The translations under genes and the position numbers were made by a program. A stretch of 61,019 bases of DNA from Candidatus Margulisiibacteriota bacterium (GTDB lineage Bacteria; Margulisbacteria; Termititenacia; CAZZFK01): contig JBHPMC010000005.1 of assembly GCA_042562495.1 (NCBI GenBank), positions 1 to 61,019 of the forward strand, read 5' to 3'. Under the pieces are notes generated by a model. It was not told the origin of the DNA. It did no database searches and saw only the letters and a program-made list of their open reading frames with translations. Positions 30,752 through 35,872 of this stretch are shown piece by piece (the first letter of the stretch is position 1; the number at the start of each line of letters is the position of its first letter).

Positions 30752-33700
30752 ATGAAGATAAATGCGAATAATTATTGGCAGATCTTTTGGGATGCGGATG
30801 AGAACAGGAATACCCGTGTTACAAAAAAAGAGCTGGAAAAAGAAATAGAAGAAAAGAAGATAGAAGGAATAAGTAAAGGTGATCTAAGTAAGATCTCTGA
30901 AGATAAAGATATTTCCGCTAAAGAATGGGATAACTATATAAAAAATAAGGTATTAACCGAGCAAGAAGTAAATATTGGAGTGGAAACTGTTGATCCAGAT
31001 ATAGCACAGAACTTGATAAATAAAATAAAAATTAAGAATTCCTTTAAAAAACATATTCCTGAGGAACATCTTTTTGAAATGCTTCAGAGAGGAGCACGCC
31101 CAGAAGAAATCGAAAAGCTTCCATGGGAAAGTATGATATATATAAAACATGTTTATGACTATGGTTATGATGTTTATCCGGATGCAAATCGGATACAAAC
31201 TTTAAGCAAAGGAGTTTGTGAATTATTAAAAATGGGAATGGGATTTAAGGATATACTATTTTTACCATGGGTATTTGTTAGCAGTCATCATAGATTTAAT
31301 GTTGATGAAGAAATAAAAATGACAAATACATTAGTAGAAGTAGTGTCAAAGAATTTGAAGGCAGGGATGAGTTCTCATGATGTAGAAAGTTTGCCATGGT
31401 ATAAGATATTAGAATATAGAGGATTAATAGCAAAGAGTAAAGATTATACTAAGGGATTTTACGAGTACGCAATAAAATTATTAGAACACTTTGGAAATGG
31501 AGCTGCAGCTCTTTACACGGCTGGAATGAAAGCTGAAGATATCCCAAAATTAATATGGATTAAATCATTATATGAAATTAAGCACGATTTTAAAAACTAT
31601 CGGACGTATGGGAGATCAGCGCTCGGTCGCATAAAGATATATCCTTATATAGTTAAGGTTTGTGAGGCAGGAATTACTGATGTAGAAGATATAAATAAAT
31701 TACCCTGGATGAAAATAGATCCAAAACATTTACAAAGTTATGTAGTAAAGTTATATGAAGTAGGAATGACTGATGTTGATGATTTCAATAAATTACCTTG
31801 GCTGGAAACAAATCAGAGTGCTTTAGCACATGGTGTGGCTAGTTTGTATCAAGCAGGAATAACGGATATAGAAGATATTTTAAAAATTCCATGGAATGAT
31901 CTAAATAAAGGAAGGGCTTATACAAATGAAGCCCAAAGTAATATTCTTGGTCATGTTATTAAAGTCTGTAAAGCATATGAGGCGGGAATGCACGATATAG
32001 ATCTATTGAATGAGTTGTTTTTTGATAAAAAATGGCCTGCTTCTTTCGGAGAGGGAGTTGCTCAAGTATATAAGCTAGGAATTACTAAGCTTGAAGACAT
32101 TAATAAGTTGCCCTGGCGAGATGTTTTAAATGTACTCGATGAGAGGGATAGGTATAGTGATGAGGGTGGCGCTTTAATGAAAGCATTAGGTGAAGGTATA
32201 GGTATTGTATATCAGGCAGGAATGACTAATATTGAAGATATTAATAGATTGCCATGGGTAGAAAGTATAAATGGTCTAGGATCTTATGATAAAGATAGAT
32301 ATGGCCCAGGTATAGTCAAAGCTATGGCTAAAGCTGCTGTTGAATTAGTTATAACAGAAAAAGTGCCACTTGAATTATTTAAGCAGATCAAATGGGCAAA
32401 CTATAGATATGAGCCTAGTTTAATGCTTAAAATATTTTCTTTATTGAGAGAAAATGAATTTTCTTTAGAAGAAACAATAAAAATAGTTAATTCTCTCAAG
32501 AGAGATCATGAACATTTTCTTAGATTTATTTTGCGTTTAAAAGACTTGGTGATATCAAGTACTAAGGCCAAAGAATTGCTGGGATCAATAGTTGATAAGG
32601 AAAATCCGAGAGCATTAACAGACACTCTAAAGGATTTTGTTCTGTTTTATAATGGTGAGCCTGACGAAGATCAAATATTGATATACCTTAATAATCTATA
32701 TCAAGCATATGAGTTCACAAGCAGAAACAATCTATTTATGGGCAAAAGAGATATCATTAATATTTTACTAACAAAGATCAGGAATTTGGATAAAGAAATA
32801 GAATTGTTTAATGGAGAGGTGATCGCAAAAAAGACAGAAAGATTAATTAATACGGGAAATTACACAAAAGCTGCTAATTTAAGAAATGATCTGCAATCAA
32901 TCTCACCTGCCGAAGATACCTTGGCATATCTTATTGCGGAGGTTATAAATACAGAATACAGGTATTATTATTTTATTAAGAAAGAAACAGAAGATTCTTT
33001 AGTGTGGGCATTGCTTTTAAATGAAGCGAACAGTTTTTATCTTGAGAAATATCCTTATGCCATGATACCTAATGATTTTAGTTCAGATGTTTTTCGTAAG
33101 CAGATCTGTCAATCTCTTTCAGCGAACAGCTGCTATATGATGATCAAAGATAATGCTGCAGCGCTATCTATTTATTCCTTCAGAGAGATATGCACAAGAT
33201 TAGGCCAGATAGAAGATATGGAAGAGGCTTTGATCCGTTTTGAGCAAGAAGATCCTCGGGGTTTTGAGCAATTTTTGACAAATTTAATAAAGCTTGGTGG
33301 GACGAGCTATATCCAGCATTATGATTTTATCTTTCCCAGAGTATTCAAATTGCTGGATAAAAGTACAAATGCCTTGGATACAGGCATGAACCTAACGGTA
33401 GCTTTAGAGAGATTATTCAAAGATGTTAATAAGCCATTTCAAGAACTGGATAGATTGTATGAGGAGTCTGAGGAGCTTTTTAAAAGCCATGGCAAAGACA
33501 GCAAAGCTTATGAAATGAAATTGGCCGAGTGGAAGCAGCAAAGGCAATGGATCCAGGATAATCTAAGCTTTTTGAACGCCCAAAAATATTATAAAGAAAA
33601 ACTGGGCTTAAAGATCGTAAATGATTGGAAAACGGAGTACGAGGCCTACCTTGCAGATAATTCCAGAAATACCGAAAAACTCCGGCTGCTCAGCTTCTGG

Positions 33701-35872: not shown

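Follow-up and report, generated by a model that had tools for sequence, protein, structure and literature searches.

Several described groups of bacterial proteins combine a repeat array with an enzymatic module. They include ankyrin-repeat effectors with a catalytic domain, and the MARTX and large clostridial toxins, which are large, lack a Sec signal and contain an internal, autoprocessing clan CD peptidase domain (CPD) in which a His and then a Cys follow hydrophobic strands. Here we describe a giant protein of 1706 amino acids that shares this logic of array and putative enzymatic module, together with the large size, the missing Sec signal and the His-then-Cys order. It is encoded on contig JBHPMC010000005.1 of a Candidatus Margulisiibacteriota bacterium (assembly GCA_042562495.1), and the whole 61,019-nucleotide stretch that was analysed is referred to as the window. 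Two other described groups bear on parts of the protein. Its repeats, here called KLPW units, resemble the named alpha-helical repeats (ankyrin, TPR, HEAT/armadillo) in being built of two-helix units, and its C-terminus carries a short E-T...G-P-A-Q pattern that resembles the E-S...G-L-M-Q pattern of the family 1 lytic transglycosylases (SLT, PF01464).

Relatives and domain plan of the giant protein

The giant gene is one uninterrupted open reading frame (ORF) at 30752–35872 on the forward strand, stop codon included, and its relatives align across residues 685–1698. Sequence comparison places it in a small family of large, modular proteins of bacteria that had not been described before. Its members follow a common plan, namely an EF-hand-type N-terminus (degenerate in the giant protein), a variable helical repeat array and a conserved C-terminal module of ~940 residues. 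Three domains make up this module: a helical one, an alpha/beta one in which Arg-x-His, Cys and Asp-x-Asp residues are invariant, and a second helical one at the end. The giant protein has both the central and the His/Cys domains, with R-x-H, C and D-x-D, and the features of the long form, i.e. the C-terminal domain and an upstream helical array.

The relatives were found in an exhaustive phmmer scan of 1.84 billion representative sequences with residues 507–1706 as the query, after which a cluster look-up added full-length members. The scan itself gave eight relatives. An initial annotation, made from the letters of the window alone, had described the protein as an orphan; scan and look-up together show that it has distant but significant relatives, the best of them at an E-value of 1.8e-157. 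Homolog searches by word index, in which the whole protein, its repeat region and a two-domain profile (A7) served as queries, found only the protein itself, and these negatives carry little weight, as relatives missed there were later found by the exhaustive scan. No identical record was found by exact look-up of the 1706-amino-acid protein in public collections, and the genome, metagenome and viral contigs scanned for related loci with the protein and alignments A5 and A8 yielded no relative. No part of the giant protein has a significant match in Pfam, NCBIfam, PHROGs or PADLOC, and none was matched by sequence comparison with PDB chains. Defence-system and phage libraries gave nothing except ankyrin matches in the relative P0002, and no description of the family was found in the literature.

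Much of the orphan appearance is explained by the poor sampling of the lineage. Among 185,579 species genomes, the closest homologs of the neighbouring U32 peptidase gene are only 53–54% identical; they belong to a Candidatus Margulisiibacteriota metagenome-assembled genome (MAG; locus L001) and to an unclassified MAG (L002). The window and L002 have flagellar genes in common, at 50–66% identity. Neither at L001 nor at L002 does a giant ORF lie beside the U32 gene.

The closest relative, the metagenomic protein P0013 (3388 amino acids; JGI/ENA contigs L095–L097), is 35% identical over residues 719–1657 of the giant protein, which is the best match given above. Its gene is surrounded by housekeeping genes on a contig of 103 kb. 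The two proteins have in common the three-domain C-terminal module (~940 residues), an EF-hand-like N-terminus and, in the same position, a helical array with a matching core. P0013 differs in its at least 17 detectable 'AGITD' units, which extend over ~2000 residues and lack the K-L-P-W tail.

P0002/P0010 (1108 amino acids) comprises an N-terminal segment, ~14–17 ankyrin repeats and then the central domain, which matches residues 763–1094 of the giant protein. On contig L098 the 3' end of P0010 abuts an ISL3 transposase, and an ORF past this insertion sequence (IS) matches residues 1133–1612 of the giant protein (E 3.5e-56). The transposase, of the ISL3 family (13286–14386, reverse strand, within L098 10001–16339), separates P0010 from this downstream ORF of 564–609 amino acids. 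P0010 and the downstream ORF are a single IS-split gene that follows the same plan, with ankyrin repeats in place of the KLPW repeats. The pair has the same C-terminal module as the giant protein and differs from it in the ankyrin array and in the ISL3 split. The same 1108-amino-acid ORF is also present on the short contig L081, which ends 6 bases past the stop codon. L098 additionally encodes a Kelch beta-propeller protein (from 21630).

P0003, P0004, P0006 and P0007 are fragments of such long family proteins. A shorter form of ~740 amino acids is represented by P0008 (MDO8462489.1), P0009 and P0005/P0011 (MBI2082078.1). P0008, P0009 and P0011 contain the central helical and His/Cys domains with the same invariant residues as the giant protein, but lack the beta-rich insert, the whole C-terminal domain and statistically detectable KLPW/AGITD units. 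The MAGs that contain P0008 and P0011 are labelled 'Deltaproteobacteria bacterium', and the contigs of the ~740-amino-acid members have a higher GC content (52–57% for L084 and L085). Across the family, contigs differ widely in composition (GC 41–57%), and occurrence is patchy. N-terminal EF-hands were found in P0008 and P0009, while P0011 has no EF-hand match. An ORF of 148 amino acids with a faint EF-hand match lies immediately upstream of P0011 (L099 7436–7882), an arrangement that looks like gene fission or fusion within the family. A conserved neighbour gene beside the short members was also considered and rejected, as the two candidates are not homologous.

Within the giant protein, all features lie on the forward strand. 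The N-terminal region (residues 1–100; 30752–31051) holds two degenerate EF-hand-like segments, FWDADENRNTRVTKKEL (residues 12–28) and EDKDISAKEW (residues 50–59), and aligns with the EF-hand regions of P0008, P0009 and P0013; the resemblance is weak. Pfam EF-hand models match these regions in P0008 and P0009, and residues 15–35 of P0013 match EF-hand_6 below its cut-off (E 0.002). The giant protein itself has no Pfam EF-hand match, and its loops, aligned by eye, deviate from the canonical length by 2 residues in one direction or the other. The array of ten KLPW units (residues 101–505; 31052–32266) is followed by a low-GC helical segment (residues 506–718; 32267–32905) in which the GC content at third codon positions (GC3) is 0.26, and whose sole match is the short fragment P0007, at residues 685–738. 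The conserved central helical domain (residues ~719–1053; 32906–33910) is common to P0013 and P0002/P0010, and is more weakly recognized in P0005/P0011, P0008 and P0009. Next come the beta-rich insert (residues ~1054–1150; 33911–34201), which the alignments place in the long family members and which is missing from those of ~740 amino acids, and the alpha/beta His/Cys domain (residues ~1151–1305; 34202–34666), defined by the six-member alignment A14. The C-terminal, mostly helical domain (residues ~1360–1706; 34829–35869) contains conserved E-T...G and S-x-G-P-A-Q-x-R motifs and is common to P0013, the downstream ORF of L098, P0003, P0004 and P0006.

The His/Cys domain and a proposed function

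Eight residues of the His/Cys domain (Arg1192, His1194, Cys1218, Phe1239, Asp1242, Asp1244, Gly1248 and Asn1252) are invariant in the six members of this shallow alignment, which are 26–52% identical. In a low-confidence model, beta-strands lie just ahead of Cys1218 and of the Asp-x-Asp motif, with helices between them, and the arrangement of His and then Cys recalls that of clan CD peptidases.

A hydropathy heuristic agrees with the initial annotation in finding neither a signal peptide nor a transmembrane segment. By this heuristic alone, the maximal Kyte-Doolittle mean over 19 residues is 1.35, with no transmembrane-like segment, and the N-terminus, MKINANNYWQIFWDADEN, is non-hydrophobic.

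Our favoured reading, which we hold tentatively and at somewhat less than an even chance, is that the giant protein is a modular family member that acts as a repeat-targeted enzyme, and possibly as an effector. The repeat array would form a solenoid that binds a macromolecular target, and catalysis would fall to the domain with the invariant His, Cys and Asp residues, for which a cysteine-dependent hydrolase or transferase is the most plausible type. In this domain the His and the Cys would each come after one of two successive beta-strands, an arrangement known from caspase-like (clan CD) peptidases. As the protein has no signal peptide, it would act in the cytoplasm or leave the cell independently of a Sec signal. 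It may be an effector, secreted or injected as the initial annotation had supposed, which would fit the absent Sec signal, the variable arrays, and the ankyrin array and EF-hands of the relatives.

A number of observations weigh against this proposal. No domain of the giant protein matches a characterised family by sequence, and the His/Cys domain in particular has no Pfam match in four members at E ≤ 10 and no match among PDB sequences with profiles A5 and A14. Clan CD cysteine peptidases (caspase, gingipain, CPD, CHAT) gave no HMM (hidden Markov model) or profile match to it either. The glycine precedes the histidine (R-G-H) and does not follow it (H-G), which is atypical for clan CD. The AlphaFold2 (AF2) model of the domain is poor, with a predicted local distance difference test score (pLDDT) below 50, so that its fold and its catalysis are guesses. 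The giant protein differs from the MARTX and clostridial toxin CPD and from the ankyrin effectors in sequence and profile, in its R-G-H motif and in its low-confidence fold, and from known toxins and effectors in having no linked secretion system. No relative was found in annotated phages or plasmids (tblastn with both halves of the protein) or in viral contigs, and no secretion, chaperone or immunity partner genes are linked to family members. Every member lies among housekeeping genes, and gene context therefore gives the effector role no support.

The main rival to the enzymatic reading is that the giant protein is a non-catalytic cytoplasmic scaffold or regulator, a large helical-repeat protein that would organise some endogenous process, perhaps responsive to Ca2+ through an EF-hand N-terminus like that of its relatives, in which the Arg, His, Cys and Asp residues serve structure or ligand binding. 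We consider it unlikely, though it accounts for several findings. Neither a signal peptide nor a transmembrane segment was found by the heuristic, no enzymatic family is matched, and the context is a housekeeping one throughout (UPF0182, U32, Lpt and RodA here; ATP synthase, BipA, L21/L27/Obg and CarB elsewhere), with no association to mobile elements bar the one IS insertion, which disrupts a member. However, invariant His, Cys and Asp-x-Asp residues at 26–52% identity are more typical of an active or metal-binding site, and the swap of the array to ankyrin, together with patchy occurrence across contigs of 41–57% GC, would be unusual for a core housekeeping scaffold. If the protein is only a lineage-specific scaffold, the value of these findings is mainly annotational, in that the labels 'orphan' and 'muramidase' should be dropped.

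A bolder version of the enzymatic reading, which we regard as rather improbable, would see in the His/Cys domain an undescribed Cys/His(/Asp) enzyme that is aimed by interchangeable arrays (AGITD/KLPW or ankyrin), tuned by Ca2+ through the EF-hand N-terminus, and that represents a new family of effectors or toxins by which uncultivated bacteria (Margulisiibacteriota-like and 'Deltaproteobacteria' MAGs) act on another cell. Should the favoured reading of a repeat-targeted enzyme be true, the helical repeat, the His/Cys/Asp domain and the helical end domain would be three domain families new to Pfam and, at the sequence level, to the PDB. The family would also offer a clear natural case in which the targeting array is exchanged, between the new repeat and ankyrin, while the catalytic chassis stays the same. 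It would open a way into the biology of lineages that have been poorly sampled, possibly with a new enzyme fold.

The repeat array and the C-terminal end

The unit core of the array reads h-x-x-h-Y-x-A-G-(I/M)-T-D-(I/V)-E-D-I-N-K-L-P-W. The conserved Gly of the ten units is found at residues 114, 162, 205, 258, 307, 338, 369, 412, 443 and 490, i.e. at spacings of 48, 43, 53, 49, 31, 31, 43, 31 and 47 residues with a minimal period of 31. When the units were aligned (A1) and turned into an HMM, it returned exactly ten matches, each at an independent E-value between 1e-8 and 1e-13, and these are the copies and Gly positions that had been read from the sequence initially. The rest of the window, the relatives and 90 fetched loci gave no further matches to this HMM. 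The distance from Gly to Trp is one residue shorter in copies 1–4 than in copies 5–10. At the DNA level the copies are 60–71% identical, and the array went undetected by Tandem Repeats Finder. Among the five best copies, different codons are used at 42 of the 116 identical residues. This DNA divergence and the differing codons indicate that the array is old and conserved at the protein level, and neither an assembly artefact nor a recent expansion.

The initial annotation recognised no named repeat family in these units, and in this it was right: they have no Pfam match to Ank, TPR, HEAT, LRR or Sel1, and the probability against an ankyrin profile is at most about 1%. Its further claim that the repeat is unique does not hold, as the core recurs in P0013, which bears many 'x-L-P-x-h-h-x-A-G-I-T-D-x-x-D-I' units. 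Alignment of the KLPW units to eleven P0013 units with hhalign gave a probability of 91.7% (E 7.7e-7, 20 columns). The giant protein is also matched by an HMM of the P0013 units (E 7e-9), which gave a single domain hit among 120 shuffled controls. By these matches, KLPW is a local, K-L-P-W-tailed variant of an 'AGITDxxDI' repeat type. This AGITD/KLPW type marks the long members of the family and is absent from the curated repeat families.

Derivation of the KLPW units from ankyrin repeats was ruled out, as hhalign against 14 ankyrin units of P0002 gave probabilities of 0.5% and 1.0% and no Ank match was found at E ≤ 10; the P0013 repeats were likewise ruled out as ankyrin (0.4–1.0% across the ankyrin comparisons). 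A likeness of KLPW to units of P0008, P0009 and P0011 ('KAGFSDDQIAQVP', 'LGLTPDQIIEIV'), TALE-like by eye, was dropped, since neither repeat HMM supports it. An AF2 model of the repeats from the single sequence is all helical and of low confidence (pLDDT 49), and its Foldseek matches are generic solenoids with TM-scores (template modelling scores) of 0.2–0.3. The model supports a helical repeat scaffold, and nothing finer.

An array that binds nucleic acid was also weighed. The 'AG(I/M)TDxEDI' core could be read as a helix-Gly-helix element like the helix-hairpin-helix (HhH), with which the protein would track along DNA or RNA and deliver its C-terminal module. The minimal period of 31 residues is regular, and the best Pfam match in the repeat region is to the HhH-type family DNA_pol_lambd_f (residues 364–386, 19.1 bits, E 0.0012). 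However, this match is below the cut-off of 29.8 bits, covers one unit at most and was not reproduced with the units scanned singly. The units are also acidic (D/E-rich) and not basic, and in one relative ankyrin repeats, which usually bind proteins, take the place of the array. We consider such a role very improbable.

At the C-terminus, the strings FLETGTGG (residues 1389–1396), SVGPAQVRY (1412–1420) and AYLLYKD (1478–1484), on which a lytic transglycosylase reading had been based, are present as described, but that reading finds no support in HMM, profile-profile or fold comparisons. It would make the last ~320 residues a lysozyme-like domain, and the protein a wall remodelling factor or a wall-piercing effector. 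ILMTIFLETG and SVGPAQVR do resemble the SLT 'ES' and 'GLMQ' motifs, and E-T and G-P-A-Q are invariant in three full-length relatives. The third motif varies, with AYLLYKD aligned to VDFMYHN and the Tyr alone kept. No Pfam family, and hence no SLT or lysozyme model, matches residues 1351–1706 or the four members of alignment A4 at E ≤ 10, and NCBIfam gave nothing. When the C-terminal profile was compared by hhalign with the SLT domains of four E. coli proteins, Slt70, MltD, EmtA and MltC, cut at their Pfam boundaries (alignment A12), GPAQV was placed on GLMQI, but with a probability of only 0.1–0.2%; with an improved three-member profile the best alignment shifted to a different site (0.3%). 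An AF2 model from a shallow seven-row alignment has pLDDT values of 60–96 over residues ~1344–1644 and is poor elsewhere. Foldseek with this model against PDB and BFVD found nothing at E ≤ 0.001, with no lysozyme or SLT among the matches listed, an outcome that the initial annotation had itself named as refuting its reading. The giant C-terminus thus differs from SLT by HMM, profile-profile and fold tests, and the heuristic finds no export signal. In our reading the protein is not a lytic transglycosylase, an alternative that is largely refuted and to which we assign very little probability; its C-terminal motifs are conserved features of a helical domain outside the named families and give no evidence for a muramidase.

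Genomic setting and base composition

The giant gene is a real coding sequence under selection. It is the largest ORF of the window, as noted initially; the next-largest encodes 914 amino acids. The alternative that the ORF is spurious, in decay or a product of misassembly, at which the low GC and GATC depletion of the N-terminal half and the lack of an exact copy elsewhere in public collections might hint, is refuted for practical purposes by a 5.1-kb frame open within DNA of 41% GC, by relatives at E 1e-157, and by repeat copies that diverge synonymously and are too diverged for assembly collapse or expansion.

The repeat region has a GC3 of 0.23 and 3.25 GATC sites per kb, as against a GC3 of 0.39–0.49 and 10–14 GATC/kb in the neighbouring genes, in agreement with the unusual composition and near-background GATC density reported in the initial annotation. 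The window as a whole has 11.05 GATC/kb, while 3.6/kb are expected from its base composition (a 3.1-fold over-representation), and within the giant gene the repeat array alone falls to the random level.

Hairpins had been proposed on both flanks, and both are real and stable. The upstream one (30713–30738, forward strand; 9–11 bp stem) has a folding energy of -13.8 kcal/mol (z -3.7), and its 3' arm extends into the purine-rich GGGAGAAAG stretch ahead of the ATG of the giant gene. The downstream, GC-rich hairpin (35878–35917, forward strand) reaches -23.8 kcal/mol (z -5.8). Neither has a U-tract on the forward strand. An extended -10-like element, TGATATAAT (35921–35930), follows this hairpin closely and is only a few bases away from the U32/TrhP-like gene (35937), which suggests that this gene has its own promoter. 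Scans of the window with Rfam models and for tRNA genes gave no matches.

The neighbours of the giant gene are housekeeping genes and encode UPF0182, the U32/TrhP-like peptidase, an LptA/LptC-like protein, RodA, PBP2, MreB, FlhA, MurA and a type II secretion system/type IV pilus ATPase. The LptA/LptC-like protein (37210–38490, 426 amino acids) joins LptA/OstA-like and LptC-like segments in a single polypeptide, and its gene shares 14 bases with the end of the U32 gene. Upstream of the giant gene, the last base of the UPF0182 stop codon is also the first base of a 274-amino-acid ORF (29823–30647). This ORF has no family match; a weak PHROG 'lipoprotein' match is confined to its N-terminus (E 0.004).

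Four further large ORFs are present in the window, two on the forward strand (42814–45231, 806 amino acids; 53649–56123, 825 amino acids) and two on the reverse strand (12210–14426, 739 amino acids; 16618–18726, 703 amino acids). None is related to the giant protein. Three have no Pfam match and the 703-amino-acid ORF has a LysM domain only. Both forward-strand ORFs are also low in GC (0.36–0.37). The GATC excess of the window is shared by the Margulisiibacteriota locus L001 (11.9/kb). Among other tetranucleotides of the window, CCGG and GGCC are enriched ~2.2–2.4-fold, and CTAG (0.35x) and ACGT (0.32x) are depleted.

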